A stretch of DNA of 64,000 nucleotides from Lingula anatina (Eukaryota > Animalia > Brachiopoda): positions 20,312,651 to 20,376,650 of the forward strand of contig CM120647.1 in NCBI GenBank assembly GCA_051362555.1, written 5' to 3'. A program made the position numbers and the translations under genes. A model generated the notes under the pieces. That model was not told the DNA's origin and made no database searches. It saw only the letters and a list, made by a program, of their open reading frames with translations. Below are positions 7,513 through 34,314 of the stretch, in pieces. How positions within the stretch are numbered: position 1 is the first letter of the stretch; each line of letters begins with the position of its first letter.

Positions 7513-10235
7513 TTAGACCTTCGGGCGAGCGGCGTAAGCCCCTGAAAGTAAAAAAAGTGGTTAAAATAAGCTTGTAAGAGAGCTCTAAAATACGGTTATT
7601 TAAAGTCAACGCGAAAAACATTGTACTTGTTTCAAAACACCTACAGATCTTTACCACGCCCAAACATCCTCCCCAACCCTTGGATTCCAACACCGGACAC
7701 AGATGTTACACTACCAAATTTTGTTTCAATAACACAATAAACAGCAAAAACTTTGGCTTTGAAGTATCCCTGAACAGATGGCCATGGACTTACCATATCT
7801 ATCGCAGTCTGGATGCTTTGTGTAAATTCCAGCATCGGCTTTGTCACGAGCGCACGCTGGAATCAGAAGATAAAAGCTGCGGCCAATTCAAAGTCACATC
7901 ATGAAGCAACAACATATTATGTAGACGCCTGAGCAACATCAAAGCAATGAATGACGTCACAATGACGTCATGTTTCTTTTCGACACTTAACCTACGATAC
8001 TTTGGGACATAAAGATTATCTAAAAGAAATGTCGCACAGGGGTCTACTCTCCTTTTTTGGGCTGGGCGAAGCCACCAAGTTATAGCAATTGCAATGAAAC
8101 TAATCATTTGTGAAACGTTAAACTCTCAAGCCAAGCCGTGAGGAAGACAGGTCTCGTAAAGCAACAAATCTCGCGCGAGATTTCAAACGTAAAGTCAATA
8201 GTAACAGCTCAGTTATAAAACATAAACGCATATACTCACAGCAGTCATGACGGACCCATCTTTGTTTCATAACATAGTCCGCCAGTCGGACCCCACATTC
8301 ATCTACACAATAACTCCTGAAACGATACAAAGCTAGATTACGCCACTTCCCGAGGACTGGCCAAACTATTCCGACCACTGTTTCAGTGTACTTTTTTAGA
8401 CTAATAGCAGGATTTTATATTATATTATTTATCTGTGTTAATAGGACAGGGCAGCGTGCGTGTGCATGCACGTGTGTGAGTGCGTACATGTACGTGCTTG
8501 CGTGCGTGCGTTTTTGTGAGGTTGTATACACAGTATGGGCGGCGGTTTATACAAAAATGCAAAACACGATTAGTCGTCATCGTTATCAGATCAGTCGAAA
8601 TGAAAACACGATTAGTCGTCGTCGTTATCAGATCAGAAGGCAAAATACGACTAGTAGTCGTCAAAACGCAACTAGTCATCAAAACGCAACTAGTCATCAT
8701 CAAAACGCAACTAGTCATCATCAAAACGCAACTAGTCATCAAAACGCAACTAGTCATCATCAAAACGCAACTAGTCATCATCAAAACGCAACTTGTCATC
8801 AAAACGCGATTTGACGCCAGATGGCGCCCATTGTACGAACATCTAGGCCAAGTCACATGATCCACAGTGATCAAAATGGCGGACGTTATTGAAGCAGCAT
8901 TATCATATTCCTCGCTCGAACTCGAGAATTATCTCTACGCGTACAATCTAATAATGATATTATATATATAATAATATCTGGAACTTGTGAAATGAGTACA
9001 ACAATAAAGCAGTGCTTCACAAGTGTGTGTTTTTGTTTTTTTTTTAATTTATAACATGTCCAAATTATTTAATAAATTATTTAATTATTTATTATTTCGA
9101 GAATTATCTCTACGCGTACAATCTAATAATGATATTATATATATAATAATATCTCGAACTCGAGATAATTCTCGAGTTCGAGCGAGGAATATGATAATGC
9201 TGCTTCAATAACGTCCGCCATTTTGATCACTGTGGATCATGTGACTTGGCCTAGATTTTCGTACAATGGGCGCCATCTGGCGTCAAATCGCGTTTTGATG
9301 ACAAGTTGCGTTTTGATGATGACAAGTTGCGTTTTGATGACGACTAGTTGCGTTTTGATGACTAGTTGCGTTTTGACGACTACTAGTCGTATTTTGCCTT
9401 CTGATCTGATAACGACGACGACTAATCGTGTTTTCATTTCGACTGATCTGATAACGATGACGACTAATCGTGTTTTGCATTTTTGTATAAACCACCGCCC
9501 ATAACACAGTATATATGTGTCCGTTTGCAACTGTATTTGTGCATTCAAGTCCCTGTGAGTGTATTTACCCCACCTTCAATAATTGCTAACCGCGCTCTAG
9601 TATCTATCTCAGCATTTTCTCAATCTATCGCGCTACTCGGTCGTAAAGGTTTTCCTGCTCGAGCAAATCGGGGTGACTGTCGCTCCTCCACCAATTAATG
9701 AACCGAGCAAATAATTTCTGCTTCTCCTTCCATATTAGAAATTATAAATAACATCACGCGTGAAAATCTCTCAACTCACATAGAACCTCTGTTTTGCTTC
9801 ATGGCAAACGTGCCCTCGGGGGTACAGATTGGCCGTTCTCGGCCAAGCGCAGGTGGTAAAGCGTCAAATTCTGCCTCCTTCTCCTTGCACGTTTTGGGAC
9901 ACTGTCCTGCAAACGATTTAAAAATGCACAAAATTTAAAAAAGCGATAACTCACAATCAAAAAGCGCCGAAGTCGATGTGGCTGCAGCATGCGGGCATCA
10001 TGGTTAACTCGTGTTTGCACGTGTTTATAGTGTGTGTAGAATTCGACTCATCAAACAATTTTTAAATTTTTAAATTTGACGAAAAAAAAAACATTTCTTA
10101 GCAATTGTGAAATTTTATGCTAAAACTTCAAAGAAGTTTTTTTTCTTTTTTAAGTTTTCGGTAGTATAAATATGCTCTTTCTATACCTGCGTATACAGCA
10201 CCAACCACACAAATGACGACAACTAAGAACTTCAT
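7513..10235 (-). CDS. Secreted thyroglobulin type-1 domain protein (thyropin-like), copy 1, 114 aa
   Basis: Exons 10235-10187, 9906-9780, 8316-8240, 7856-7794, 7541-7513 (49/127/77/63/29 nt, all GT-AG). Protein MKFLVVVICVVGAVYA-GQCPKTCKEKEAEFDALPPALGRERPICTPEGTFAMKQNRGSMSYCVDECGVRLADYVMKQRWVRHDCSCARDKADAGIYTKHPDCDRYGAYAARPKV*. Signal peptide plus C..PxCxxxGxFxxxQ..YCVDxxG TY signature. Confidence 0.88.
8534..9503. mobile_element. Non-autonomous palindromic DNA transposon, IS3EU-like, in intron 2 of thyropin copy 1
   Basis: Termini TATGGGCGGCGGTTTATACA...TGTATAAACCACCGCCCATA, 6-bp TSD ACACAG (8528-8533 and 9504-9509), ~350-400 bp inverted arms with internal 18/21-bp repeats (caaaacgcaactagtcat[cat]). 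Site is empty in units 3 and 4. TAY..RTA ends with a 6-bp TSD are the IS3EU hallmark. Confidence 0.85.
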
Positions 10236-10318
10236 CTTCAACCAGGTATTCTACCAAAGTGGGTACTTGTCTCCTTTCTGACGGCTGTCAATGTATCTGG
10301 CTCTCTATTCTATGTCCC

Positions 10319-10328
10319 GTTATATAAA
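10319..10328 (-). promoter_or_regulatory. Candidate TATA box of thyropin copy 1 (equivalents at ~17890, ~29360, ~34400)
   Basis: TTTATATAA on the minus strand ~85-90 nt upstream of the ATG, retained as TATATA in all four copies, followed ~25 nt later by CCAG(T/A)T. Confidence 0.5.
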
Positions 10329-11952: not shown

Positions 11953-12013
11953 TTAGAGTGGTGTAAGGGTCGCCGTGTGTCCATCCCAACAGTGACCCCT
12001 GGTCTGGTCACAC
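11953..12013 (-). pseudogene. Orphan duplicate of the terminal exon of gene A (unit 1)
   Basis: Intact acceptor ttag|G, reads CDQTRGHCWDGHTATLTPL*; homologous to 36722-36788. Confidence 0.8.
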
Positions 12014-12672
12014 CTAACACAATGAAAACAAGATATAATTTAGTTCCAACACAGCTGTCACACCTAACACAATGAAAACAAGATATAAATTAGTTCCAAC
12101 ACAACTGTCACACCTAACACAATGGAGCCAGGCTGCAAAAACGTCACCTGTTGTGTTTGAGACGGATTTCATTCCAAACAAGACGTCCCTATTTTGCCGA
12201 TGATATTTCACTCCTAGAAATTATTTCGGACATAGTATACTCTCTGTTTTTCGAAATAAGTTGACATTTTACAGGTCAAACATTAACTAGCTAGATTATT
12301 TTGTTACTGTTGTCAGAGACTTCATGTATGCCATAGAACTGGGACTTACATGTATGTTTAATTCTTTTTTCATTGTCATTAAATGAATTTGATGAATTTT
12401 AAGAACATTTCCTGATTCACTGCCAATTTAAAAATCGTAAGAAAAAACTCATCAAGATTTGAAGTATTTTTCCAGTCAATCCTTTCAGTGGGTTAAAGAA
12501 AAAGTAAAAAAAAAAGTATACAAAATATACTGAGCAGAAAAAGATGACGTCGATTTTATTGAGATGAATTTGAAAAACATTAATGTAAGTGGACGAAAAT
12601 TAAATATGTGAAAATAAATCTATTCTTATGAAGACCTTTTCTTATTGTACTGCGAGGAATTCAAAAGTTCGT

Positions 12673-12716
<44 letters not shown>

Positions 12717-12773
12717 TATATTTTATGTCGGGACAAACACTATTCGTTATTGGGCAATAGACCGAAACATTGC

Positions 12774-15700
12774 TTAAGGGATCTAGGATATTAATGAAAA
12801 AGTCCAAAACTAATGCAGCTAATTAAATTTCCTATTAATAGTCCGGTGGCTTAGGGCCAAAAAAAAAAAAAAAAAAAACGGCCAAATTGTGACACGGCGG
12901 ATAAAAGCACCAAATTTTGCATGTGGGAACCTTTTGACATACTTAATCTAATTAAAGCCGTAGCCCACGGAAAAAATTTACCGTTTGGCCAAAAAATCCA
13001 AAATGGCCGCCAATTTGTGAAATTATGTAGAAATATATACATACCTATGTAGATTTTTATCAAATAAAGTATTTTCTCAATGTTTTCCACATCCTTATTA
13101 CCCATATTATGCATATATGTCAGATAACAAACGAGTGTCCTTGTACTTTTTGAAAAATCCAAGATGGCCGCCGTATGGCATAGGAATACTAGAACTTGTA
13201 CAAGGGTTTTCAACTAATGCCAACTAGGAAGATGCATTGCCCACTATCTAATTATTTTTGTTTCTGAGTGCCGTATTACACAAAGAATATATTTGTGGTG
13301 AGTAACTAACCTTTATTCTCAGGCATTTCGAGAAAAATCCAAGATGGCCGCCATATCAAAGGAATACTTGTATACACATAGGGCTTCTTCCGCCATGGAG
13401 ATATAATATTAATTGATAAATTAGGTTTGTTGCTTAGTATTCTCCACATCTTTTTAATCCACATAATATATATGTGGTGAGAATGTTATGTGTATCCTTT
13501 TTGAAAACAAAACAAAACAAAATGGCTGCCATTAGCCATAGAAGGTGGGGTTCAGTTAATACCTGCGAGAGATAGGCTTCCATTTAAAATGAAGCTACAT
13601 TCAGTTATTTTTCTGTTTTTTTATTATTATCATTATCCCATGATACATATCTGTTAGGTAATTAATGTCCATGTTTGATCATTTTGGGGAAATCCAAGAT
13701 GGCCTTCTTTTCCCCATAGGAAAACTGGTGCATTGGATTTTATAGGCACTTCTAAGGCAAATGAGGGCAATCATGATATTTTGTCAAAATACTTAAGGGT
13801 ACACACTTGTTACCCACCAGACAGATATCTCAAAGTCCAAAAAGAATGTGGGAGATACCGAAAAACAAAATTCATTTTATATTGAACCCAATGTCTCTCT
13901 GGCAGTAGTTGACTGTACTATTCCTATTGTGAATTGCAGCAATCTTGAATTTTATCAAATACGCAACATTCACACTTGCTAGACACCAGATTTATATAGA
14001 GTAAGGTTAATAAGGATGTTAACATGTTTGAACATCAAACGGCTTTATTTCATGTTGGAATCAATGTCTGAACTATTCCATTAATTGACACCTATGTGCA
14101 TTTGAATGATATATTCCTACGGTAACTGGCAGCTATCTTGGGTTTTCTCCGAATAGTACTCAAAGATACATACACTTTCTACACACACAGAGTCTTTCAT
14201 CGGGATAAATAGGATATAAAATACATTTAAAAACGATCTAAAGTTAACTACATTTAAATTACATTACATTTAAATTGTACTTTAAAGTGTATCTCTGGCA
14301 TTATTTGATTATGTGTAGTAATATTCTAATGACAAAAGGCAGACATCTTGAACTTTTTTCAGAATACCCAAAGATACATACATGCTACAGACCAGGTATA
14401 CACCACAGGGGTAATAATAAATGGAATGAAATACGTAAATTATTTTTAAAACAAACCCATGGTAATGTAATTGTATAATAAACCATATGCCTCTCTAGCA
14501 GCAATTGAAAGCCAACCATTAGTATTCCTATGTCAAATTGTAGCTATCTTGGATTTTCTCAGAATATCCAAGGATGCACACTATTTACCCACCAGATATA
14601 TATCATAGGACTAATAAGGATGGGCAAAACTTGATAAGCAAACACAATTTCACCCTGGTAGTAGATGAAAAGTCATGGATGTGCAGTTGTAATTCCAGTA
14701 GTATTCCTATGGCCAATGACAGCCATCTTGCATTTTCTCAAAATGATAAAACATGCACATTTATTACCTGCTAGATATGTATCACAGTGTAATAATAATG
14801 TGTAAAACACTGAAAAAATAAACTGAATTTGATAGTGAATTATGTTTTTCCTAGCTGGCATTAATTCCAACCCTTTGTAATACTAGAAGCATTCCTATGA
14901 CATATGGAGGCCATCTTGGATTTTCTCAAATTGCCCAAGAATACATGTTAGTTACTCACCACATACATATTGTGTGGGTGGAAAGGATGTGGAAAACACT
15001 CAGAAACAAACTTAATTTGATGGTGGAAAATTAATCTTTCCAGTTGCCATTAGTTGAATCCCCCGTTTACTAGAATTCCTGTAGCACATGACAGCCATCT
15101 TGGATTTTCCAAAATGCCCAAGAGCACTTCGTGGTTACTTACCACAAACATATTATGTGGGTAACAAAAATCTGAGAAACAGACTTAATTTGATAGTGGA
15201 AAACGTATCTTTCTAGCTGGTATTAGTTGTGCACCAGTATTCTTATGACTGTTTCTATGGCATATGACAGCCATCTTGAATTTTTTCAAAAAGTCCAAGG
15301 GAATTTGTTTGCTTTCTGACATATATGAATTAAATGGGTAATAAGGGTGTGGAAAACTCTGAGAAAATAATTTATTTGATAAAAATCAACATAGGTATGT
15401 ACATATTTCTATAGAATTCCATAAATTGGCAGCCATTTTGGATTTTTTGAAGAAACGGTTAATTGTTTGAGAGGGCTACGGCTCTGATTTGATTTAGAAT
15501 GTCAAAAGGTAACTACATGCCAAATTTGATGCTTTTATCCGCCGTGTCACGAATTTTTCCTTAAGCCACCGGACTATAACTAAAGGATATGGTCTAGCAA
15601 GCAAAAAAATTTTGTAGTCACAGTGTAACACGAGTGACGTAATATCAGCGTTTTGGGGCTAAAATTGTCATTTTTTAATCAAGATTTTCTCTTAAACAAG

Positions 15701-16054: not shown

Positions 16055-17803
16055 TTAGACCTTCGGGCGAGCGGCGTAAGCCCCTACAAATTAAAAAAGT
16101 GGTTAAAATGAGCTTGAGAGAGAGAGAGAGGTTTAAAATACGGTTATTTAAAGTCAAGGCGAAAATCAAACATTTTACTTTTTTCAAAACACCTACAGAT
16201 CTTTACCACACGCAAACATTCTCAACAACCCTTGGTTTCCCACACCGGACACAGATGTTACACAACCAAATTTTGTTTCAATAACACAATAAACAGCAAA
16301 AACTTTGGCTTTGAAGTATCCCTGAACAGAGGGTCATGGACTTACCATATCTATCGCAGTCTGGATGCTTTGTGTACACACCAGCATCGGCTTTGTCACG
16401 AGCGCACGCTGGAATCAGAAGATAAAAACAACGGTCAGTCATATGAAGCAACAACACGACGTTATGTGGACGTCTGAGCAACGTCAAAGCGGTGAATGAC
16501 GTCACGATGACGTCATATTCCTTTTGGACAGATTAACCTACGATACTTTAGGAAATAAAGGTTACCTAAAAGATATATCGCACATCGGCCTACTCTCAAT
16601 TTTAGGGCTGGGCGAAGCCACCAAGGAATAGTAATCGCAATGAAACTAATTGTTGGTGACAGTTTAACCTTAAGCCAAGCAAGAGGAATGCAGGTCTCGT
16701 AAAGCAACAAGCCTCGCTCGAGATTACGAACATGTAGTCAACCGACTTTACGATCTTATCTCAAAATATTAACGGTTCAGTTATAAAACATAAACGCATA
16801 TACTCACAGCAGTCGTGAGGGAGCCATCTATCTTTCGTTTCATAGTCCCCCAGTTCAACCCCACATTCGTCTACACAATAACTCCTGGAACGATACAAAG
16901 CTAGATTACACCACTGCCCGGGAACTGGCCATACTTTGCCGCCCACTGTTTCAATGTACTTTTTTTAGACAAGGATGTCAGATTATTTTATTAAACTGTG
17001 TTAAGAGAACAGGGTGTGTGCATGCACGTGTGTGAGTGCGTGTACTTGCGTGTGTTTGCTTGCATGTGTAATTGTGAGTTTGTATATGTATATGTGTCCG
17101 TTTTTACCTGTATTCGAGCCCTTGTGCGTGTATTTACCCCGCCTTCAATAATTCTCTATCTCAGCATTATCTCAATCTATCGCCCCGCTCGGTCGTCACG
17201 GTATTCCTACTACAGCAACTCGGCGTGACTGTCGCTCCGCCACCAACACCAACCAATTAATGAACCGAGCAAATAATTTCTGCCTCTCCTACCATATTAA
17301 CATCTATAGATAATATTACGCGTGAAAATCTCTCAACTCACTCAGACCCAAGGTACTGCTTCTTGTCAAACGTGCCCTCGGGGGTACAGATTGGCCTGTC
17401 CCGGCCAGCCAAAGGAGGTGAAGCGTCAAAATCTGCCTCCTCCTCCTTGCACGTTTTGGGACACTGTCCTGCAAACGATTTAAAAATGCACAAAATTTAA
17501 AAAAGCGATAACTCACAATCAAAAAGCGCCGAAGTCGATGTGGCTGCAGCATGCGGGCATCATGGTTAACTCGTGTTTGCACGCGTTTATAGTGTGTGAA
17601 GAATTCGACCAAAAACCCAATAAAGCCATGGACAGAAATTGTTTTGAGGAACAAAAGTATTTCTTCGCAATTGTGAATTTTTATGCCAAAACTTCATAGA
17701 AGTTTTTTTTTCTTTTTTTAAATTTTCGGTGGTACAAGTATGCTCTTACTATACCTGCATATACAGCCCCAACCACACAAATGGCGACAACTAAGAACTT
17801 CAT
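16055..17803 (-). CDS. Secreted thyropin-like protein, copy 2, 114 aa
   Basis: Exons 17803-17755, 17468-17342, 16884-16808, 16408-16346, 16083-16055. MKFLVVAICVVGAVYA-GQCPKTCKEEEADFDASPPLAGRDRPICTPEGTFDKKQYLGSESYCVDECGVELGDYETKDRWLPHDCSCARDKADAGVYTKHPDCDRYGAYAARPKV*. Confidence 0.88.
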
Positions 17804-19110
17804 CTTCAACCAGGTATTCTACCAAAGTGGGTACTTGTCTCGTTTTTGACGGCTGTCAATGTAACTGGCTCTCTTTTCTATGTCCCGCTATATAAGCCAT
17901 ACGCGTGTTCCTTAAATGGGGCATGGCATAAAATTATTTGAAGATTACCCGTTTAAGCCACTGAATACCGGTATTTTATTCTCAATCAAGCGTATAATAG
18001 CCCCAAACGTAGTAGTCTAATGAAGTGATTAGGAAATACCGACGCACCCGGGAATTCACTCCTAAAGTATTTTGCCATACGGAGGAACTAATAGAGAGCC
18101 CCTCTACAACATAATTACAATTGACATAAAGTGATGAATCCAATTGATATAATAACAGTTAAAACGGGAAAATGCTGAGCATTAATTCGAATGATGTTAT
18201 ATCTAACCTTCATCATTTAAAATTCAGGCTTTCATTCGTTTTGAAAGAGATAATATCTATATAATTTCGTGGTCATACGGTAATTCACGCCCAGTACGTT
18301 TATCGAGGGTATCTTTAATTTGAACATTAAAAACCGAAACAGTACTGCAATTTGATCGACATTAGTTCCAACCCTAGTTCCAATCCTCTAGTAGCCCTTG
18401 AATCATCGAGTCTATATAAGGCCACTATTTCCTCCCTTTTTTTTTTTTTAAAGCTTGTTTTATCCCTTGAAGCGTGTCCAGCTTCAGTCGGTTGGCGTCG
18501 CGGCTCTTATCTTTTTTATAAATCCCCAGTTCGTTAAATCTGTAAAAAATCGTTGATAATTTCTACTCACGAAATCGGGACATTGAAAATGAAGAAGGAT
18601 CAACCTTTCCGCCCCCTCCCCCTTTGCCCAGGGGTGTCATTCTAGATCCCCGGACCCCTGGGTTTGTATCATGGCGGTGGGAGGTGGAATGGATGTGGAC
18701 AATTTACACCTCCACCTTTCGACTCCACTCGGACGCTCAGTTGCACATTTTTAAGTATATATTGAGCTGAAAATTCAAGACCCAAATAGGGGCCATTCCG
18801 TTATAAATGGGACAACCCAGACACGTGAGTGACGCACCCATTTTATTTATAAAATATATATGTATAATCTAGACTTGTCCTTTTATATGTACTGTTTACT
18901 GTACACCAATATGGAAATAAATCAACAGTAATTGAAAAGAGATAAAAACAGTTAAAAAAAATATGTGCCATAACCCGTGGACAAGCTTTAAGAAGCAAAA
19001 AAAAAAAAAAAAAAAAAAAAGATAAATAAAAAAAAAATTTAAGAAATACTGACACCGTTTCTGCAGATTTTATTCAAGATAATGAAAAATCTGTTTTCCA
19101 CGTACATTGC

Positions 19111-19153
<43 letters not shown>

Positions 19154-19525
19154 TGACACAATACTTCACAAATACAGCATATATGTAGTACAAAAAAGAA
19201 AACTACAGTCACTCCCACTCTCACACTTAAGAGAAAATATACTATGTTATATTAATTAAATTTTTTATGGTACGTTAAACATTCAGGTTGATAAGGAATT
19301 GATAACATTTGAAGTGTACCAGAGTGACTTATCTATTTTTATCACAATTTTTTAATTTTTATTTAAATAAAGGCTCCTGCACACACTCACACATACCCAA
19401 CCTCACACACACTAGCACGCACACCCTATTTATATACAAACAAATATATACAGATTTATATACATGTATAATTAGAAGTAAACTAATAAGTAATAAAAAG
19501 TAAAAAATACAAACTGAAACAATAA

Positions 19526-22500
19526 CTATATGTTCTGATTTGCTATACTCATTAAAGTAGATTTAAGTTCCGGTTTAAGTAGCAATCTAGAATTTAATTT
19601 AGTACTTTTGAAAATAAAAAATTTAGAATGAAGAATTACAAGGTTTTTAACTTTATCACTACTTCCAAAAATGAGATCAGATGGCAGTATTTTGAAGACA
19701 TTTCCTGTAATTTGACTTAACCATAGTTCAACCTCTGTCCAGAAAAGCTTCACTAATTCACAGTCCATAAATAGATGCTTTATCGTTTCAGCCTGTTTGT
19801 TGCACAAACTACAAAGAGGATTCTCGATCATATGGTATTTAAACAGCAACTCTTTGGTACCCAAAATTCTGTGGATTATTCTGAAATTAAACCATTTCAA
19901 TCTTATTTCTTTAACTTTAACCAGGGCATTGGTATACGTTAGTTGCCAGTCTATTTTGATACCTAACTCTTGTTCCCATTTTTCTTCACATTTTGGTCTC
20001 TGACCGAGACTTTTTATGCAAATGTCATATATGCTTCTACATCCTTTTTTATCGTTACATAATGTTTTAACTGGGTTAGAGATCTGCGGTAATGGCAACA
20101 TAACGTTAGCATTCAGAAGTCTAAGCACAGGGTAGGCACCAAAGGTTGCTTGCCTTAATCCATAATACAGAGTAAAAGGAATCTGAATTTCAAACTCTTC
20201 TACAAAATAGTCAAATGATAGGAATTTCCCTTCGCTGTTAAATAAATCTTGGATAATATGGAAACCTTTGTCATACAAATTCTTATAAAAAATTCTTCTG
20301 CCATCTGATAATACAGCAGGATTATACCAGATTGGAGTTCTGAGAATGACATCGAGACTATTACTTGCCATTTTTTCTGAATATTCTGAAAAGTATATTA
20401 AGATTTCTCTCCAAAAAGAATTGCGAATTTTAGATATTTCCTTTGCATAAGTTGGTCCAAACTGAGTCAATCTCTGAACATCCGATCCAGTGGCTTCAGC
20501 AAAAAGTTTATTTGTTATTTTATCAGAGGTTATCAATCTGCGAATCCAGGAAATTTTTAGCGCCCTCACAAAGGATTCTAAATGTATCATACGGCAACCT
20601 CCCTGTTTATAGTCCTGAATAAGTGTTTTACGGGCAACTTTTTCTGTTTTACCGTGCCAAATAAATTTGAATAGCATATTTTGTAAATTTTGCAGCCACT
20701 CTTTGGTAGGGCTCGGAAGAGAGAGCAGTAGGTGTGTTATTTTTGAAATAATTAAAGACTTCACTACAGTAATCTTACCTAAAGTAGTAATATTTCTTTT
20801 TCCCCACCGATACATTTCTAATTCTATTTGCTGAAGCTTGCTGGTATAATTCAACTCATTCATTTGTTCTAAATCAGCTGTGAAAACTATACCTAATATA
20901 TTAAAAGGGTTGTTAGTCCATTTAAGATTGTTATCTTTACAGATAATTTCTCTACTGTTGGCCTTTGAACCAATCCATATGGCTTTAGTCTTACTAATAT
21001 TGGGCTTAAGCCCCGAGTACTTGGAAAACTGAAACAGTAAGTCGAGTGCACTCTTTAAACTTTTCTCTGAGCCATCTAAAAAAAGCACTGTGTCATCTGC
21101 GTACTGAGATAGTTTTACTTCCACCCTCCCCAAGTTTATTCCTGTTATGTTATTGTTTTGTCTTATAAGAATAGCTAGGATCTCAACACATAAATTAAAA
21201 ATGTAGGGTGATACAGGGTCTCCCTGTCTGCAGCCTCTGCCAATTTTAAAGAAATTAGAGAAAATACCATTTTGTATTACACATAATTCAGGATCATTAT
21301 ATAGAACATTTATCCATTTTTTAAAGTCATCACCAAAATTAAAAAACGAGAGAGTTTTTTTCATAAAATCCCAAGATATGCTATCAAATGCTTTAAGGAA
21401 ATCTACTGAGAGTATCATTCCTGGGATTTTTTTATCTTTTGTAATTTGCAAAACATCATAAACAATTCTAGTATTCTCACCAATGAACCGTCCTTTCAAA
21501 AATCCCGTTTGATTTTCATGTATAAGCAAATGTAAAACTTTTTTTAATCTATTTGAAATACAAGCAGAGAGGATTTTATATGAGATGTTTAAGAGAGATA
21601 TCGGCCTCCAATTTTCTAAAAATTCCCGTGGTTTATCCCCTTTGGGTAAAATTGAAATAACCCCTTGTTTCTGGGTAATGGACAAGTGACCTTTAGCAAA
21701 CCCCTTATTATATGATCTCACAAGAAACGTTCCTATATCATTCCAGAAAAATTTAAAAAATTCGACAGAAAAACCGTCGGGGCCAGGTGATTTGTTGTTC
21801 TTCATACTTTTTAAGGCTATTAGAGCTTCCTGATAAGTAATTGTTCCCTCTAATTGCCTAGCCGTATTGTCATCTAATATGTTTATTTTGTCTTTATCGA
21901 TTATATTATTCCAATCAAAAATTTCAGAGTAGTTATCTTGTTTCGAGTAAAGATGGTTATAGAAATCTCTGATTTCTTTCAAAATTTCTGCTTGATCGGT
22001 AATAATACGACCTGTCTCCCTTATAATTTTCTTTACAGTTTTATTTACAAAATTTCTTTTTTCCAGGGATAAAAAATATTTAGTTGGTTTTTCCCCTTCC
22101 TCTGACCATTTTACTTTGGTTCTTATATAGACCCCTCTAATATGTTCATGTCTCATTTCTTCTTCCTCTAGTTTCAGAGTCTGGAGCTGGTTTTCTAAAT
22201 TCGATGTGGGGTTATCTGTATACATGGAATATAATTTCTTAATTTTTTCAGCCAGGGTCTTCATTCTTATATTTTTCTCCTTTTTCTTTGCTGAACTATA
22301 GGCAATGGTATAGCCTCTAACCTGTAATAATATCTGTTCAAAAAATGCTTGCTCATCCACAAGAAAGTCCAGATCATTGTCACTAATTTTACATAACTCT
22401 GCTTTGTTATATGGACTGGCACAATATTGATATTTTAGATCCTCTATTATTTTCTTTACTCCTCTTATATACTCAAAATCTTTTAGAAGGCTGTTATTCA

Positions 22501-23248
22501 TTTTCCAGAAACCTTTCCCTTTTTTCTGCTCAGAGAGAGTAAGTTTCAGATGTATCATTGCGTGGTCTGTTCGGTATCCATAAGTTATCTCAGTTTGATC
22601 AACAAGATTCATGAGTTCGTTAGAAATAAGGAAAAAGTCAAGCCTAGCTCTTTTTACAGGGTTATTAGAGGACCAAGTGAATTGTTTCCTCTGTTCATGT
22701 TGAGCTCTCCATGGGTCTATCAAATTGAATTTAGTTTTCAGCCGTAAGAGAGCATCTCTTGCTTGGGGATTATTAACACGTCTGTAATTATAATAATCTA
22801 AATCACTATCTTGAACTAGGTTAAAGTCCCCCATCATTATCACAAAGTGACCCTCAAAATCTTCTATGATATTTCCGAGGTGAACAAAAAATTCCGGGTC
22901 ATCTTTGTTTGGTCCATATAAATTAATAAGTAAAACAGAGTAATTATTTTCAACTTCAATTTCGATAATCAAATAATTTCCATCTTTTCCGAACAACGTT
23001 CTCATTATTTTAAATTCAAAGTTATTGTTGAAAAGGATTGCCGTACCTCTTGAATTTGATTTGCCAGGGCTCAGAAGGGTTTTATATCCCCACAAGGAAT
23101 GTACTTTTGATTTGTCCCTCTCTGTAAAGTGGGTATCTTGGATACAATATATTGAGTATTTCTGTTGTTTCAAATAGTTCAGGACGTCTCTTCTCTTTTG
23201 AGTACCTCCAAGACCCCTACAATTCAAACTAACGATATGCAAACTCAT
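19526..23248 (-). CDS. LINE ORF2: APE endonuclease, reverse transcriptase and C-terminal zinc knuckle, 1240 aa
   Basis: SLNCRGL, IQDTH, MMGDFN, RLDFFL, TDH (APE); KSPGPDG, WRPISLLN, GCRQGDPVSP, QYADD (RT); CSLC..ETIKHLFMDC (zf-RVT). Confidence 0.97.
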   Translation of the reverse strand: MSLHIVSLNCRGLGGTQKRRDVLNYLKQQKYSIYCIQDTHFTERDKSKVHSLWGYKTLLSPGKSNSRGTAILFNNNFEFKIMRTLFGKDGNYLIIEIEVENNYSVLLINLYGPNKDDPEFFVHLGNIIEDFEGHFVIMMGDFNLVQDSDLDYYNYRRVNNPQARDALLRLKTKFNLIDPWRAQHEQRKQFTWSSNNPVKRARLDFFLISNELMNLVDQTEITYGYRTDHAMIHLKLTLSEQKKGKGFWKMNNSLLKDFEYIRGVKKIIEDLKYQYCASPYNKAELCKISDNDLDFLVDEQAFFEQILLQVRGYTIAYSSAKKKEKNIRMKTLAEKIKKLYSMYTDNPTSNLENQLQTLKLEEEEMRHEHIRGVYIRTKVKWSEEGEKPTKYFLSLEKRNFVNKTVKKIIRETGRIITDQAEILKEIRDFYNHLYSKQDNYSEIFDWNNIIDKDKINILDDNTARQLEGTITYQEALIALKSMKNNKSPGPDGFSVEFFKFFWNDIGTFLVRSYNKGFAKGHLSITQKQGVISILPKGDKPREFLENWRPISLLNISYKILSACISNRLKKVLHLLIHENQTGFLKGRFIGENTRIVYDVLQITKDKKIPGMILSVDFLKAFDSISWDFMKKTLSFFNFGDDFKKWINVLYNDPELCVIQNGIFSNFFKIGRGCRQGDPVSPYIFNLCVEILAILIRQNNNITGINLGRVEVKLSQYADDTVLFLDGSEKSLKSALDLLFQFSKYSGLKPNISKTKAIWIGSKANSREIICKDNNLKWTNNPFNILGIVFTADLEQMNELNYTSKLQQIELEMYRWGKRNITTLGKITVVKSLIISKITHLLLSLPSPTKEWLQNLQNMLFKFIWHGKTEKVARKTLIQDYKQGGCRMIHLESFVRALKISWIRRLITSDKITNKLFAEATGSDVQRLTQFGPTYAKEISKIRNSFWREILIYFSEYSEKMASNSLDVILRTPIWYNPAVLSDGRRIFYKNLYDKGFHIIQDLFNSEGKFLSFDYFVEEFEIQIPFTLYYGLRQATFGAYPVLRLLNANVMLPLPQISNPVKTLCNDKKGCRSIYDICIKSLGQRPKCEEKWEQELGIKIDWQLTYTNALVKVKEIRLKWFNFRIIHRILGTKELLFKYHMIENPLCSLCNKQAETIKHLFMDCELVKLFWTEVELWLSQITGNVFKILPSDLIFGSSDKVKNLVILHSKFFIFKSTKLNSRLLLKPELKSTLMSIANQNI

Positions 23249-24127
23249 AGATTAAATAACAATTTTGTGAATTATAATACTTTCAAGTAATCCAGTACGC
23301 AGATGACATCCATAGATTGTGTATATCTATGGAATATATGGCTCATTATATCGGTGTAAAATATTTTGTAGAGTAAGCAAGTCCACATCACAGTTATACA
23401 TGCAGATATCATGATAATATATTCATTCATATCTGGTGTAGTGCTCCAATTATGCATCACTTCACAAACATACAACCCCATACATACATTAACCCACATG
23501 TCATTTGACCCTAAACATTGCTTGATCAGGATGCTCTCACCTATGAGGTTTGCATACATCACACATTCATACACATGACACACACTCACATAGACAAAAA
23601 TTTTGTTCGTAAAACAAAAAACAAAGTAAGATAACATAAATACAATCATCCCACACATTTCGAGTATCAGTACTTGCAGCATGTTCTGAAAATTGAGGTA
23701 CCTAATGATCCCACAGAATATCAAATTGTAACATTGATAATATTTTGCATAATGTTAAGGATGAGCACCAATTCAAAAAATATTTTTACAACATTAATAT
23801 TTGAATGTTAGGGATCAGCACTCACCTTATCTTTATTGGTCTATGTAAAGGATATTCTGTACATACCAGTGAAAGCATTATGTGGGTTATTCTCCTTCCC
23901 AAAAACAAGGTTTATTGGAAGATAAGAAGAACCTTATGATTATTTCTCTATTAATCGTAAAGCATGAGAAGTAGTAACAATTGGGATCTACATGTGTACC
24001 TAGAAAATATGGAAGAAGAAAGTTTATAAACATAAAGTGATAAAGATAACCAAGCAATTACATTGCATTATATCTAGGCACTCTAGGCTTTACATATTAG
24101 AAAACAAAACATTAGTCATTTTTTCTC

Positions 24128-25048
24128 CTAATTGGACCTTTTCTTTTGTTTCAGTTTCTCCTCCAAATTATCACATATGTCTACCTTTATTCTGTTTCCA
24201 TTTTTTAACTGGCAGTATACATTGCAGTTAAAGAACCATGCACTTTCAACGTGCTCATGTTGTTTTAGTTTGTTCAAGAGAGTTAAGTTTTTTAATGTTA
24301 TGTCATCATACAGACGTGCACCAGATTTCAGTTCTCTCTTTTTCCGCATGATTGTTCTCTTGATATCTGTGTTTCTAAGTTTTATGATCACTGGTCTTGG
24401 GGATCCTTGTTTACCGGGTATGCGATGTATTGCCTGGATATCAGTAGGCTCAATATTCAGTTTGGCTTCTTTTTGCAGCATATCAATAAAGATTTCTCTC
24501 AGGTTTTCCTCCTTTTTTTCTATTATGTTCAAGGCCCTTATATTAGTTTTCCTTGAGTACTGTTCATTATGATTGCAAGAGCGCATGGTTTCTTTACTGT
24601 AGTAATCATTTTGTTTTAGCAGTTCATTCATTTTTTTCATTTCTTGGTCTTTCTTTCTCATGACTTCTTTCAACTGCTCATTTTCCATCTGAAGACTATC
24701 CACCTGATCTTGCAGTTTTGCAGCACGGGTCTCAGATTCCATTTTTAGACAGTCGAATTTCTGCATAAATTTTGCATCCATTTCTGATACCATGTTATTA
24801 AGAAGTCTTTCAACCACCCTTGTTACTGTAATTTCTAAATCCTCTTTTCTAATAGTTTCTTTAATCTCATTTTTTATTTCAGACAGCTCATGCATGAGCA
24901 TTTGCAATTCTTCTGCACTGGAGTTTGCCACCTCCGAATGAGGTCTTTTAGGTGCTGAAGTTATTGTTTGTGTTTTGCTCTTTGTATTGCTGCTTGCGAG
25001 AAACCTGGACATGGTCCTGTCATCAGCCTTGGTAGGTTTCTGGGCCAT
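24128..25048 (-). CDS. LINE ORF1: coiled coil plus RRM-like nucleic-acid chaperone
   Basis: First ATG at 25048 (MAQKPTK...), heptad-rich middle region, EQYSRKTNIR and IQAIHRIPGK..PRPVIIK motifs typical of L1/Tx1/CR1-type ORF1p; lies upstream of ORF2. Confidence 0.88.
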   Translation of the reverse strand: MAQKPTKADDRTMSRFLASSNTKSKTQTITSAPKRPHSEVANSSAEELQMLMHELSEIKNEIKETIRKEDLEITVTRVVERLLNNMVSEMDAKFMQKFDCLKMESETRAAKLQDQVDSLQMENEQLKEVMRKKDQEMKKMNELLKQNDYYSKETMRSCNHNEQYSRKTNIRALNIIEKKEENLREIFIDMLQKEAKLNIEPTDIQAIHRIPGKQGSPRPVIIKLRNTDIKRTIMRKKRELKSGARLYDDITLKNLTLLNKLKQHEHVESAWFFNCNVYCQLKNGNRIKVDICDNLEEKLKQKKRSN

Positions 25049-25893
25049 GATAGCTTTGTAATCAGTAGGAGCTAGTGAGATGTCACAATAGTGCACAGTG
25101 TATAGAAAGGCCCATTACCTATATGACTGTTACAGCTTCAGGGGGCCAATTATGTCTTTGACAATGACTATTGCTGAGTAGCACTCTTTTATATAGCTAC
25201 ACTAGAGAACTGCTCAACCACCTATTTTCATGCATATACTTGCGTAAGTCCAAGCCTCCAGATTTAAAGTTCTTAGAAAATGTCACTTGCCTTTCATGAT
25301 CTATACCAGTGATGCCTACCACTACTTTCCAGAAACATTCATGAACATGTCTGCAAGACCTTAAAACTCAGGCATCTACATTTCTCACAATATTAGACAC
25401 CAATGTGAGAGACTCTTTTCTTTTGTATGTCAGGTGTTACCTCGACCTTGACCTCAAGTCACGTACATTGCAAACTTATCAGTATGAAGAAAATATATCA
25501 ACCTAATTGGTCCAAGATGACTATGGTAATTGTCTTAAACTAACTACAATGCAGTTTTAAACCCTTAATGTCCACGTGTAGAATTTTCCTCACATTACAT
25601 TTTTCTTCTGTCAAGGAATTTCATTTGCCAATGAAAAGCTGCCAAAGCATATTTCAAAAACGCAGCCAAAACTGATTAAGCGTCATTAAATTAATAAGTT
25701 ACCGTTACCGAGTAATTGATAAAGTCGACTAATATTTTGACCAAAAAAAAAAAAAAAAAAAAAAAGAAAATGAAAATGTAAATATGTCCTTCCTGTGACA
25801 TCTATAACTGATTATATTTGGTATTTGGTCAAGATAATGGAAATATTTTTGACAGGTTTATTTTCCCGGAAGAAAACCTCTCCAATCTCTCAG

Positions 25894-25960
25894 TTATTTA
25901 GTTGTTGGTGTAAGGGTTGCCGTGTGTCCATCCCAACAGTGACCCCCGGTCTGGTCACAC
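25894..25960 (-). pseudogene. Orphan duplicate of the terminal exon of gene A (unit 2)
   Basis: Intact acceptor and frame: CDQTGGHCWDGHTATLTPTTK*. Confidence 0.8.
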
Positions 25961-26270
25961 CTAACGCAATAAGAACAATTATAAATTAGTTCTAACACAG
26001 CTGTCACAACTAACACAATAAGAACAAGATATAAATTAGTTCTAACACAACTGTTACACCTAACACAATGCTAACACTACATAAATGAGTTCTAACACAG
26101 CTGTCACACTAAACACAATGAATACAAGATATAAATGAGTTCTAACACAGCTGTCACACCTAATACAATGGAAACAAGATATAAATGAGTTCTTACACAG
26201 CTGTCACACCTAATACAATGGAAACAAGATATAAATGAGTTCTTACACAGCTGTCACACCTAACACAGTG
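25955..26270. repeat. ~50-bp minisatellite (also ~12007-12125, ~31060-31325, ~36783-37000)
   Basis: Unit approximately acacagctgtcacacctaacacaatgaaaacaagatataaatgagttcta; ctgtcacac recurs at 26101, 26151, 26201, 26251. Copy number differs between duplication units. Confidence 0.9.
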
Positions 26271-26628
26271 GAACCAGTTCTAAATTCTCTGCAGGGCTGG
26301 AAAAACATCACCTGTTGTGCTTGAGATGGATTTCATTCCAAACAAGAGGTCCCTATTTTGCCGGTGATATTTCACTCCTAGAAATTATCTCAGACATAGC
26401 ATATTCTCTGTTTTGCCAAATAATTTGACATTTTTACAGGTCAAGTATTAACTAGCTAGATTTAGTTGTTAATGTTGCCAGGAACTTATTGTATGTTATG
26501 GAAATGGAACTTATGTAGAATTTTTTTATTTTCATAAAAATGCATTTGGTGAATTTTAAGAATATCCTGATTCACTGCCAACTCTGACAATTTAAAAAAA
26601 TTTAGGAGAAAAAACTGGTATCAAGATA

Positions 26629-27495: not shown

Positions 27496-27558
27496 TTAGA
27501 CCTTCGGACGAGCAGCGTAAGCCCCTACAAATTAAAAAAGTGGTTAGGTTAAAATGAG

Positions 27559-27596
<38 letters not shown>

Positions 27597-29272
27597 TTAA
27601 AATACGGTTATTTAAAGTCAAGGCGAAAAACAAACATTGTACTTTTTTCAAAACACCTACAAATCTTTACCACACGCAAACATTCTCAACAACCCTTGGT
27701 TTCCCACACCGGACACAGATGTTACACAACCAAATTTTGTTTCAATAACACAATAAACAGCAAAAACTTTGGCTTTGAAGTATCCCTGAACAGATGGCCA
27801 TGGACTTACCATATCTATCGCAGTCTGGATGCTTTGTGTACACACCAGCATCAGCTTTGTCACGAGCGCACGCTGGAATCAGAAGATAAAAACTGCGGTC
27901 AGTCACATGAAGCAACAACACGACGTTATGTTGACGTCTGAGCAACGTCAAAGCGGTGAATGACGGCACAATGACGTCATATTCCTTTTGGACAGATTAA
28001 CCTACGATACTTTAGGAAATAAAGGTTACCTAAAAGATATATCGCACATCGGCCTACTCTCAATTTTAGGGCTGGGCGAAGCCACCAAGGAAAAGTAATC
28101 GCAATGAAACTAATTGTTTGTGACAGTTTATACTTAAGCCAAGCCAGAGGAATGCAGGTCTCGTAAAGCAACAAGCCTCGCTCGAGATTACGAACATGTA
28201 GTCAACCGACTTTACGATCTTATCTCAAAATATTAACGGTTCAGTTATAAAACATTAATGCATATACTCACAGCAGTCGTGAGGGACCCATCTATCTTTC
28301 GTATCATAGTCCTCCAGTTCAACCCCACATTCGTCTGCACAATAACTCCTGGAACGATACAAAACTAGATTACCCCACTGCCCGAGGACTGGCCATAATT
28401 TGCCGCCCTCTGTTTCACTGTACTTTTCTAGACTAGGGTAGCAGATTATTTTACTAAACTGTGTTAAGAGAGCAGGGTGTGTGCATGTACGTGTGTGAGT
28501 GCGTGTACTTGCGTGTGTGTTTGCGTGTATGTGTATTTGTGAGTTTGTATACACAGTGTATGTGTCCGTTTGTACCTGTATTCGAGCCCTTGTGCGTGTA
28601 TTTACCCCACCTTCAATAATTGCTAACCGCGCTCAAGTCTCTATCTCAGCATTTTCTCAATCTATCGCGCCGCTCGGTCGTCATGGTATTCCTACTACAG
28701 CAACTCGGCGTGACTGTCGCTCCGCCACCAACACCAATCAATTAATGAACCGAGCAAATAATTTCTGCCTCTCCTACCATATTAACAACTATAAATAATA
28801 TTACGCGTGAAAATCTCTCAACTCACCCAGCCCCAATGTACTGCTTCTTGTCAAACGTGCCCTCGGGGGTACAGATTGGCCTTTCCCGGCCAGCCAAAGG
28901 AGGTGAAGCGTCAAAATCTGCTTCCTCCTCCTTGCACGTTTTGGGACACTGTCCTGCAAACGATTTAAAAATGCACAAAAATTAAAAAAGCGATTACTCA
29001 CTATCAAAAAGCGCCGAAGTCAATGCTGCAGCATGCGGGCATCATGGCTAACTCGTGTTTGCACGTGTTTATAGTGTGTGAAAATTCGCCTAAAACCCAT
29101 AAAGCCATGGACAGATATTGCCTTGAAGAACAAAAGTATTTCTTCGCAATTTTGAATTTCTTTGCTGAAACTTCAAATATATTTTTGTACAGTTTTGGTT
29201 GCACAAGTATGCTCTTGCTATACCTGCATATACAGCACCAACCACACAAATGGCGACAACTAAAAACTTCAT
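27496..29272 (-). CDS. Secreted thyropin-like protein, copy 3, 114 aa
   Basis: Exons 29272-29224, 28953-28827, 28348-28272, 27872-27810, 27524-27496. MKFLVVAICVVGAVYA-GQCPKTCKEEEADFDASPPLAGRERPICTPEGTFDKKQYIGAGSYCADECGVELEDYDTKDRWVPHDCSCARDKADAGVYTKHPDCDRYGAYAARPKV*. Confidence 0.88.
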
Positions 29273-30490: not shown

Positions 30491-30539
<49 letters not shown>

Positions 30540-30998: not shown

Positions 30999-31065
30999 TT
31001 ATTTAGTTGTTGGTGTAAGGGTTGCCGTGTGTCCATCCCAACAGTGACCCCTGGTCTGGTCACAC
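30999..31065 (-). pseudogene. Orphan duplicate of the terminal exon of gene A (unit 3)
   Basis: Intact acceptor and frame: CDQTRGHCWDGHTATLTPTTK*. Confidence 0.8.
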
Positions 31066-31683
31066 CTAACGCAATAAGAACAATTATAAATGAGTTCTAA
31101 CACAGCTGTCACAACTAACACAATAAGAACAAGATATAAATTAGGTCTAACACAGCTGTCACACCTAACACAATGATAACACTATGTAAATAAGTTCTAA
31201 CACAGCTGTCACACCTAACACAATGAAAACAAGATATAAATGAGTTCTAACACAGCTGTAACACCTTATACAATGGAAACAAGATATAAATGAGTTCTTA
31301 CACAGCTGTCACACCTAACACAGTGGAACCAGTTTAGAAATTCTCTGCAGGGCTGGAAAAACATCACCTGTTGTGTTTGAAATGGATTTCATTCCAAACA
31401 AGAGGTCCCTATTTTGCCGGTGATATTTCACTCCTAGAAATTATTTCGGACATAGAATATTCTCTGTTTTGCCAAATAAATTGACAGTTTTACAGGTCAA
31501 GTAATATCTAGCTAGATTTAGTTGTTAATGTTGCCAGGAACTTATAGTATGTTATGGAAATGGAACTTATGTAGAATTTTTTTATTTTCATAAAAATGAA
31601 TTTGGTGAATTTTAAGAATATCCTGATTCACTGCCAACTCTGACAATTAAAAAAAATTAGAAGAAAAAACTGGTATCAAGATA

Positions 31684-31910
31684 CACACATTGGACAATAG
31701 AAGCGTCACCCCTACTGAACCAATACTTTGGAGGAGAAAAATGACTGTGGAATGATATGCTCCTTGTATCATTTTATAAACATCAAATTTCACAAAAAGA
31801 CCAACAATACGGTTCCATGGTACAGCGGGTTTATACTCATTAGTCACATTATAAGTAGACCAGGCATTATAACTTTGATTACTCTCATTTAGGGGGTGAC
31901 ACTTCTTGTC
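31684..31910. mobile_element. Tc1/mariner-like MITE (unit 4, same site as in unit 3, right end eroded)
   Basis: TA|CACACATTGGACAATAGAAGCGTCACCCC...GGGGTGACACTTCT; same flanks as 26629-26850. Confidence 0.75.
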
Positions 31911-32566
31911 AAAGTTTTTGTCCTTTCAATGTTTTATAGAAAAAGTATACAATGTGTACTGATCAGAGAGAGATGACGTCGATTTTATTGAGATGAATTT
32001 GAAAAAGGTTAATGTAAGTGGACGAAAATTTAAAATATATAAATTATAATATAAATTTATAATGTGAAAAAATTTTTATTCTTTTGAAGACCTTTGCTTA
32101 TTGTATTGCGAGGAATTCAAAACTTTGTGTTAATGTTTTGTTCATTTGTATATTTTATGTTTGGCAAACACTATACTTTATTGGGGCAATAGACCTAAAC
32201 ATCATTTAATTAGGCAACTAGGATAAGTAAAATTTGTTTACTATGGAAAAATCTTTGAACACATTTCTGTTTGACGATCAACACAATGCGTTTTTAACGC
32301 GTGTCTCAAGAAGTTAAATTCTAGATCAAGCAGAGTTGCCTATTCGATGTAAGAGTATGAAAGTGAATGGACAACTATTTTACTCGAGATTCATTTTATT
32401 ATTGCTATTCTCCAACGAAGTTTTTCACATCATAGGTCATTTATTTGATAAATATTTGATTCATTAAAACTTAAATCTAAGCAGCAGTTTTTGAAGAATT
32501 GGATCTCATTCGTTTCCACTGAGTTCTATTGATTCAGAAGTAATTTTTGGCGTGTTCCATCTCATT

Positions 32567-34314
32567 TTAGACCTTCGGACGAGCAGCGTAAGCCCCTACA
32601 AATTAAAAAAGTGGTTAAAATTAGCTTGAGAGAGAGAGAGAGAGAGATTTAAAATACGGTTATTTAAAGTCAAGGCGAAAAACAACATTGTACTTTTTTT
32701 TCAAAACACCTACAGATTTTTACCACACGCAAACATTCTCAACAACCCTTGGTTTCACACACCGGACACAGATGTTACACTACCAAATTTTGTTTCAATA
32801 ACACAATAAACAGCAAAAACTTTGGCTTTGAAGTATCCCTGAACAGATGGTCATGGACTTACCATATCTATCGCAGTCTGGATGCTTTGTGTACACACCA
32901 GCATCGGCTTTGTCACGAGCGCACGCTGGAATCAGAAGATAAAAACTGCGGTCAGTCACATGAAGCAACAACACGACGTTAAGTTGACGTCTGAGCAACG
33001 CCAAAGCGGTGAATGACGTCACAATGACGTCATGTTTCTTTTGGACAGATTAACCTACGATACTTTGGGAAATAAAGATTTTCTAAAAGAAATGTCGCAC
33101 ATCGGCCTACTCTAAATTTTAGGGCTGGGCGAAGCCACCAAGGAATAGTAATTGCAATGAAACTAATCGTTGGTGAAAGTTTAACCTTAAGCCAAGACAG
33201 AGGAATGCAGGTCCCGTAAAGCAACAAGCCCCGCTCGAGATTACGAACATGTCGTCAACCGACTTTACGATCTTATTTAAAAATATTAACGGTTCAGTTA
33301 TAAAACATAAACGCATATACTCACAGCAGTCGTGAGGGAGCCATCTATCTTTCGATTCATAGTCCGCCAGTTCAACCCCACATTCGTCTACACAATAACT
33401 CCTGGAACGATACAAAGCTAGATTACACCACTGCCCGGGAACTTGCCATACTTTGCCGCCCACTGTTTTACTGTACTTTTTTTGACAAGGATGTCAGATT
33501 ATTTTACTAAACTGTGTTAAGAGAACAGGGTGTGTGCATGCACGTGTGTGAGTGCGTGTACTTGCGTGTGTTTGCGTGCATGGGTATTTGTGAGTTTGTA
33601 TACGCAGTATATATGTGTCCGTTTTTACCTGTAATCGAGCCCTTGTGCATGTATTTACCCCACCTTCAATAATTGCTAACCGCGCTCAAGTCTCTATCTC
33701 AGCATTTTCTCAATCTATTGCGCCGCTCGGTCGTCAAGGTGTTCATGCTCCAACAACTGGGGGTGACTGTCTCTCCGCCACCAACACCAAACAATTAATG
33801 AACCAAGCAAATAATTTCTGCCTCTCCTACCATATTAACAACTATAAATAATATTAGGCGTGAAAATCTCTCAACTCACCCAGCCCCAAGGTACTGCTTC
33901 TTGTCAAACGTGCCCTCAGGGGTACAGATTGGCCGTTCCATGCCAGGCTTTTTAGGTGAAGCGTCAAATTCTGCCTCTTTCTCCTTACACGTTTTGGGGC
34001 ACTGTCCTGCAAACGATTTAAAATACACAAAATTCTAAAAATAAAAAAAGTACCGATGTCGATGTGACTGCAGAATGGGAACTTGTGTTTTCAGGTGTTT
34101 ATAGTGTGTGAAAATTCGACCAAAAAACTAATAAAGCCATGGACAGATATTGCTTTGAAGAACAAAAATATTTCTTCGCAATTGTGAATTTTTTTGGCTA
34201 AAACTTCAAAAAAATTTTTTTCCTTTTTTTTAATTTTCGGTAGTACAAGTATGCTCTTACTATACCTGCGCACACAGCACCAACCACGCAAATGACGACA
34301 ACTAAGAACTTCAT
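32567..34314 (-). CDS. Secreted thyropin-like protein, copy 4, 114 aa
   Basis: Exons 34314-34266, 34006-33880, 33401-33325, 32925-32863, 32595-32567. MKFLVVVICVVGAVCA-GQCPKTCKEKEAEFDASPKKPGMERPICTPEGTFDKKQYLGAGSYCVDECGVELADYESKDRWLPHDCSCARDKADAGVYTKHPDCDRYGAYAARPKV*. Confidence 0.88.

Follow-up and report, generated by a model that had tools for sequence, protein, structure and literature searches.

A 64,000-nucleotide stretch of the genome of the brachiopod Lingula anatina (assembly GCA_051362555.1, contig CM120647.1, positions 20,312,651 to 20,376,650 of the forward strand; hereafter the window) carries a family of small genes encoding thyroglobulin type-1 (Tg1) proteins. Self-BLAST revealed four tandem copies of a 5–6 kb unit, and a tblastn search of the window for a fifth copy found exactly four. 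All four genes are encoded by the minus strand: copy 1 at 7513–10235 (exons 10235-10187, 9906-9780, 8316-8240, 7856-7794 and 7541-7513), copy 2 at 16055–17803 (17803-17755, 17468-17342, 16884-16808, 16408-16346 and 16083-16055), copy 3 at 27496–29272 (29272-29224, 28953-28827, 28348-28272, 27872-27810 and 27524-27496) and copy 4 at 32567–34314 (34314-34266, 34006-33880, 33401-33325, 32925-32863 and 32595-32567). Each has five exons, introns of phases 1-2-1-1 bounded by GT-AG, and an unbroken frame of 114 codons, and the eight cysteines of the mature protein are preserved in all four. An initial annotation of this DNA had placed the array at 8240–34006; its span is slightly larger, from 7513 to 34314. 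The observation stands: the genes, truncated and thyropin-like, form a young tandem array that is expressed, in which divergence is focused on the loops, gene conversion has acted and the evidence for positive selection is borderline.

The copy 1 protein is identical to a Lingula anatina database protein, P0003 (RefSeq XP_013413638.1). Copy 2 differs from the Lingula protein P0004 solely at residue 71, and copy 4 from P0002 at residues 3 and 15; these small mismatches suggest that the database records probably represent another haplotype. RefSeq assigns copy 1 and a protein resembling copy 2 to a single locus, LOC106175984, as its isoforms. These 'isoforms' are separate genes, and the annotation is corrected here. 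In the MetaClust record P0005, two copies are fused into one 226-residue model. A word-indexed search with the full protein returned only two Lingula proteins among its four candidates. An assembly artefact as the source of the copies was ruled out by intron differences of 5–15%, private insertions, and the existence of copy-specific reads or database proteins.

As read from its sequence, each protein consists of a predicted signal peptide, a type-1B Tg1 domain and one half of another, and is likely to be a secreted protease inhibitor. The N-terminus, judged by eye, is hydrophobic over 16–17 residues and is encoded on its own exon. Both proteins scanned matched Pfam Thyroglobulin_1 (PF00086), at 23.3 and 22.0 bits against a cutoff of 20.6. 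An AlphaFold model of copy 1, built from 22 sequences, had a predicted local distance difference test score (pLDDT) of 82.6, with a helix at residues 23–32, strands at 53–56 and 59–63, and a second helix at 85–92 (pLDDT ∼88). It aligned with the p41 fragment (1ICF_I) at Z 7.1 and a root mean square deviation of 2.7 over 63 residues; the best Foldseek E-value for the model was only 1.5e-3. The Tg1 fold and the three-loop mapping that had been proposed are thus supported by the Pfam match, the model and the structural alignment.

Relatives were collected with HMMER, which gave 32 matches. Many are short, two-domain, equistatin-like invertebrate proteins, including the Lingula paralog P0007 (LOC106170253). 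The alignment used below (A2) comprised 19 rows of HMMER matches, with cluster members but excluding long multi-repeat proteins, and three array proteins; family entropy was taken from 16 non-redundant rows. Tg1 domains of subtype 1B lack the inter-strand disulfide of loop 2 and keep the other four cysteines, as described in PMC6584486. The array proteins keep Cys23, Cys44, Cys62 and Cys84 and align to the second Tg1 domain of saxiphilin. Positions 55 and 60, cysteine in nine of 16 relatives, are Asn or Tyr and Ser, respectively, which separates the array proteins from subtype 1A. The closest solved sequence was the type-1B domain of saxiphilin (E = 0.12), reported in PMC6584486 as a nanomolar inhibitor; a PDB search with exon 2 alone gave no match.

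Several observations weigh against a role in inhibition. The copy 1 model is as similar to IGFBP and thyroglobulin domains as it is to inhibitors (Z 6.2–7.3), the CWCV motif is degenerate, saxiphilin's loop 2 is longer by two residues, and protease inhibition is described in PMC7863939 as confirmed for few Tg1 proteins. Since the fold is common to inhibitors, saxiphilin, thyroglobulin and IGFBP, the fold alone is no proof of inhibition.

The C-terminal tail, encoded by exons 4 and 5 (7513–7856, minus strand, in copy 1; the same in all copies), contains a helix, a loop and the cysteines Cys86 and Cys102. Aligned with two-domain relatives, its 30 residues correspond to the opening subdomain of another Tg1 domain, ending after the G-x-Y motif. 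This second domain is truncated: a stop follows residue 114, and the exon 5 junction was confirmed by reads. A tblastn search of the window, at E up to 1, found no convincing remnant of the missing half. The linker Cys84-x-Cys86 is invariant in all 22 aligned proteins. One-and-a-half Tg1 units like those of the array occur inside the longer proteins P0010 and P0012; P0026 and P0035 end near the end point of the array proteins, and are possibly incomplete models.

Across the four copies, 25 of 114 residues vary. Loop 1 (residues 31–42; 9830–9865, minus strand, in copy 1, within exon 2 and at equal offsets elsewhere) has six variable residues around the invariant Gly38. The loop 2 hairpin (residues 55–59, running into exon 3; 9780–9793, minus strand, in copy 1) has four around the invariant Gly57, and loop 3 (residues 67–83; 8244–8294, minus strand, in copy 1) has seven, with Tyr73, Arg78 and Trp79 invariant. 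All 12 loop strings quoted in the initial annotation were found at their expected places; position 59 straddles the exon 2/3 junction and was confirmed after splicing. With the loops as drawn there, 19 of 32 loop residues are variable as against four of 65 other mature residues (P = 2e-8), the windows having been drawn around the variation. Loops taken from the cysteine and strand framework (31–42, 55–60 and 67–83), also drawn after the data had been seen, gave 17 variable residues of 35, compared with five of the domain's other 32 (P = 0.005). The claim that divergence is concentrated in the loops and that the tail is near-invariant therefore holds, with 17–19 of the 25 variable residues in the loops and one among the 30 tail residues. 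The original outline of loop 2 needs adjusting, as it takes in the predicted strand 53–56; the turn proper is 57–58. The counterparts of these three loops bind cathepsin L in p41, where the active site is covered by loops 1 and 2 and further, primed-side contacts come from loop 3 (PMC7863939); loop 1 is regarded as the likely determinant of specificity, and loop 2 as conserved (PMC6584486). Among sites variable in the wider family, 14 of 30 in domain 1 vary among the copies, compared with none of eight in the tail (P = 0.017).

Between copies 2 and 3, we counted eight nonsynonymous changes and one synonymous change in exons 2–3, and zero and five, respectively, in exons 1, 4 and 5, exactly as had been claimed. 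A Fisher test on these counts by region, proposed with the claim, gave P = 0.003. It was set aside as evidence on positive selection because the same result is expected from purifying selection outside the loops; the count shows heterogeneity, not a ratio of nonsynonymous to synonymous rates (dN/dS, or omega) above 1. In exons 2–3, the proportion of nonsynonymous differences (pN) exceeded the synonymous proportion (pS) only in the copy 2/copy 3 pair and was below it in five of the six pairs. In the copy 2/copy 3 pair the excess was not significant (P = 0.42), and the domain pN of 0.050 equals the intron divergence of 0.051.

Codon likelihood models were self-written (F3x4, four sequences) rather than run in PAML. 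With single-base steps, M1a was compared with M2a on two trees (P = 0.004 for the best and 0.001 for the other), and the comparison of M8a with M8 gave P = 0.0009. Sites with a posterior above 0.9 were 35, 36, 56 and 59, all in loops 1 and 2. Outside the loops omega was ∼0.14, indicating purifying selection on the scaffold. Measured against introns 1–3, loop omega was 1.75–2.14 (P = 0.0003–0.011), or 1.35–1.65 (P = 0.014–0.16) if exons mutate 1.3 times faster; the fitted synonymous/intron ratio was 1.19 and did not differ from 1. Neutral simulations on mosaic trees alone never reached the observed statistic (0 of 51). The signal peaks on the branch between copy 1 and copies 2–4, with an omega of 2.1–2.5 (P = 0.04–0.10), and is weak among copies 2–4, though this contrast in omega was not significant.

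Other results weigh against positive selection. Multinucleotide changes can yield false positives in selection tests. When multi-base events were allowed at 1.4%, 3% and 6% of neutral events, P in the site models became 0.012, 0.041 and 0.094, respectively, and it was 0.18 and 0.07 when their rate was freely estimated. Much of the signal is carried by a clustered multi-base change in loop 1 of copy 4 (codons 35–39; 33939–33953, minus strand), and removal of these codons took P for M1a against M2a from 0.004 to 0.10. In non-coding DNA the excess of adjacent differences was ∼0.08 per difference for pairs that include copy 1 and 0.01–0.02 among copies 2–4. With 3% multi-base events added to the mosaic trees, four of 68 neutral simulations reached the observed statistic. 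Loop omega measured against the synonymous sites of exons 2–3 alone was 1.26–1.50 (P = 0.26–0.53), and among copies 2–4 only 1.06–1.32 (P = 0.47–0.89). The variable sites also coincide with positions tolerant of change in the wider family (P = 0.0025). For the diversifying selection inferred in the initial annotation, for which codon models had been suggested as the check, P extends from 0.0003 to 0.53 according to the neutral reference and the handling of multinucleotide changes. Positive selection on the loops is suggestive, a little better than even, and not established.

Gene conversion, which the initial annotation overlooked, is evident in the array, and the tail has been partly homogenized by it. 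Informative sites were clustered along the gene according to the tree that they support (48 sites, of which adjacent ones matched 26 times; P = 0.0036). The divergence of copy 1 from the other copies was 0.064–0.074 in intron 4, as against 0.14–0.23 in introns 1–3. In RNA run X14, all 257 reads over codons 94–95 and all 207 over two sites in the 3' untranslated region carried the letters of copies 2–4, despite copy-1-type loops; in run X15, none of 128 reads did so at codons 94–95. The tail letters of X14 are best read as a converted allele. Loop 3 exchanges are also seen in the database proteins: P0004 has the copy 3 residue at position 71, and in P0005, a fused model that may be an artefact, the second half combines loops 1 and 2 of copy 3 with loop 3 of copy 4. 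In the tail, synonymous changes outnumber replacements, and its invariance is attributed both to selection and to homogenization by conversion.

Expression was assessed from raw RNA runs mapped to the window, covering seven of nine runs (X11, X12, X14–X17 and X19). In the three stranded runs X14–X16, all four splice junctions of copy 1 were spanned, by 75–322 reads each. Exon depth was ∼80–230 in X14–X16 and at most 5 in X11, X12, X17 and X19, indicating that expression varies widely among samples. In these three deep samples copy 1 supplied ∼95% of the transcripts and copies 2–4 ∼5% or less; in X14, for example, 154 of 159 reads had copy 1 letters in loop 1. Copies 2, 3 and 4 are expressed at a low level. 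Copy-4-type loop 2 reads numbered seven in X14 and two in X12, copy-2-type loop 2 reads numbered four in X15, and copy-3-like letters in exon 2 were seen, weakly, in four to six reads in X11. Among the 40 copy 1 variants listed, of 362 from four RNA runs, there were synonymous changes at codons 6, 26, 49, 71 and 94 and replacements at 3, 15, 61 and 95, and no amino-acid change in a loop. Within these, the main expressed copy shows no sign of ongoing allelic diversification, and an ongoing form of the arms race that the initial annotation had invoked finds no direct support. A TATA-like box lies ∼90 bases 5' of the ATG in all four copies (10285–10325 in the window, and equivalents), and RNA 5' ends accumulate at 10285 and 17853. 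An E-box, TCACGTGA, was found ∼1.05 kb upstream of two of the four copies, 1.4 kb of upstream sequence having been searched.

Copy 1 had been described as a charge-shifted, basic copy relative to acidic copies 2–4. By net loop charge it is indeed basic (+5), and copies 2 and 3 are acidic (−2 each), but copy 4 stands at 0. Copy 1 carries the residue of the outgroup P0007 at eight of 23 variable mature sites, compared with two to three for the other copies, and its BLAST identity to P0007 was 46/94, that of the comparison copy being 41/95. As copy 1 is nearest to the outgroup, many of the differences are likely to have arisen on the stem leading to copies 2–4. The polarity of the charge shift is thus probably the reverse of that claimed, with copies 2–4 appearing to be the shifted ones.

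The array proteins resemble several known systems. Like the tick thyropin IrThy (MEROPS I31, PDB 8R6T, PMC10889554), they are predicted to consist only of a signal peptide and Tg1 domains and have a C-x-C linker, which in IrThy forms crossed interdomain disulfides (PMC10889554); the profile match to IrThy had E = 5.8e-5. In IrThy, however, both Tg1 domains are complete and of type 1A, and inhibition has been measured, whereas the Lingula proteins combine a single type-1B domain with half of another, carry an additional cysteine pair (Cys19/Cys66) and have a predicted inhibitor role. With saxiphilin Thy1-2 and the p41 fragment (6O0D and 1ICF) they share the helix and hairpin fold with three loops, and with Thy1-2 the four-cysteine pattern of subtype 1B. 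The Tg1 domains of saxiphilin and p41 sit in large proteins, and their loop 2 is conserved according to PMC6584486, whereas that of Lingula varies and is shorter. The short equistatin-like proteins of protostomes (among them P0007, Tubulanus P0011 and Mactra P0014) have the same cysteine framework and a C-x-C-A-R linker, but keep the complete second domain that is halved in the array. The additional cysteine pair is present in P0007 as well, which over 94 residues has 49% identity to copy 1.

We favour an explanation in which a two-domain, equistatin-like ancestor, comparable to P0007, would have lost the second half of its domain 2 and then been amplified in tandem. If the Cys84-x-Cys86 linker behaves like that of IrThy, crossed disulfides (62–86 and 84–102) would tie the tail to domain 1, and an additional 19–66 disulfide is proposed. 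A tail covalently tied to domain 1 would explain why the half-domain has been retained. Copy 1 would have stayed nearest to the ancestral loop 2 as the main expressed form, while the lineage leading to copies 2–4 would have gained acidic residues and altered loops, changing its protease preference. Conversion would homogenize the 3' end and reshuffle loop 3 among the copies. Taken as a whole, this explanation falls just short of an even chance. Relaxed constraint could account for the same divergence: loops tolerant of change in a disulfide-held fold would drift almost neutrally in partly redundant, weakly expressed copies, and multi-base mutations and conversion would inflate omega. Loop omega is indistinguishable from 1 against local synonymous sites and among copies 2–4, the variation follows family-wide tolerance, significance is lost when five codons are removed, copy 1 pairs show the non-coding excess of adjacent differences (∼0.08), and copies 2–4 contribute ∼5% or less of X14–X16 reads. 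Neutral drift sits poorly with a loop dN about twice the intron rate, with a doublet excess of only 0.01–0.02 in non-coding DNA among copies 2–4, and with four intact frames that retain all eight mature cysteines; moreover, the loops hold invariant residues, so that their free sites must evolve faster still. Relaxed constraint is judged unlikely, though a serious contender.

The altered loops could also reflect an arms race still under way, in which proteases of parasites, microbes or predators impose continuing diversifying or balancing selection and conversion makes new loop combinations. The departure of the database haplotypes P0004 and P0005 from the window in loop 3 is consistent with this, as is the precedent of the serpins (PMC4136820, PMC3966226). 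The P0005 model, however, is a fusion and may reflect chimeric assembly, and the copy 1 variants listed (40 of 362) include no amino-acid change in a loop; an ongoing race appears improbable. A further possibility is that the Tg1 loops bind some other ligand, such as matrix, a growth factor or a microbial surface, and diverged for that role. That the model resembles IGFBP C-domains and thyroglobulin repeats as closely as it does inhibitors would fit such a protein, as would the short loop 2 and the altered CWCV motif, but the small, presumably secreted, Tg1-only architecture matches that of IrThy and equistatin-like proteins, and type-1B domains can inhibit, according to PMC6584486. A non-inhibitory role has, in our view, a slim chance of being correct. 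A bolder reading is that of a small diversifying repertoire directed against different foreign cysteine proteases, in which selection and conversion would keep a disulfide-locked half-domain constant while conversion shuffles positively selected loop modules among copies and haplotypes; this reading is doubtful.

Hypervariability of reactive sites after duplication is an already known pattern (Hill and Hastie, 1987; Ohta, 1994; as cited in PMC4136820 and PMC3966226), and the array is not a new kind of system. Combined selection and conversion at inhibitor reactive centres is described in the Ohta review (PMC3966226), and SERPINB3/B4 is a worked case (PMC4136820). As in SERPINB3/B4, the Lingula genes are tandem duplicates with a conserved scaffold and a variable contact region, in which conversion raises both dN and dS; the serpins differ in having another fold, known inhibition and targets, and far larger sampling. 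A literature search, with most subscription journals outside its reach, turned up nothing on these genes and nothing on positive selection among thyropins. If selection were confirmed, the array would offer four natural variants, ∼20 loop residues apart on one scaffold, as a compact set for working out which of the loops, the normally conserved loop 2 among them, governs specificity in thyropins, and would extend the serpin pattern to a family and a phylum for which no report was found. Were the repertoire reading true, this would be the first case found of positive selection on reactive loops in the thyroglobulin type-1 family.

The window also contains several repeats. A foldback (long inverted-repeat) insertion at 8534–9503, identified by self-BLAST with its ends inspected, is present only in intron 2 of copy 1. 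In four of four RNA runs its reads showed mismatches on both strands, at 79–115 A>G and 54–90 T>C places per run. These are a signature of adenosine-to-inosine hyper-editing of the foldback repeat family; many of the reads run into unrelated sequence and so probably derive from other genomic copies. Between copies 2 and 3, at 19117–25459 on the minus strand, lies an L1/Tx1-type long interspersed nuclear element (LINE), ∼1.3 kb upstream of copy 2. It is apparently full-length, with an open second open reading frame (ORF2) of 1241 codons containing endonuclease, RVT_1 and zf-RVT domains, a 328-codon ORF1-like frame, a poly-A tail and an 18-bp target-site duplication at 19099 and 25460. The element is likely to be a recent insertion.

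A degenerate long inverted-repeat element with arms ∼72% alike and internal repeats lies between copies 1 and 2 (12884–15556), and an insertion of ∼640 bp upstream of copy 4 (35175–35818) is absent from the corresponding region of copy 3. A 50-bp minisatellite occurs at 12007–12126, 25954–26286, 31059–31332 and 36782–37005, with a unit number that varies by site. These sites are upstream of three copies and in the stretch at 25.9–26.3 kb that continues the copy 2 upstream region past the LINE. A frame at 56910–57284 on the minus strand matched the MIEAP (mitochondria-eating protein) domain above cutoff and is probably an exon of a neighbouring gene. Within intron 2, the stretches 17206–17339 and 9690–9735 attracted reads from other transcripts in all runs, suggesting that they are probably fragments of a dispersed repeat.

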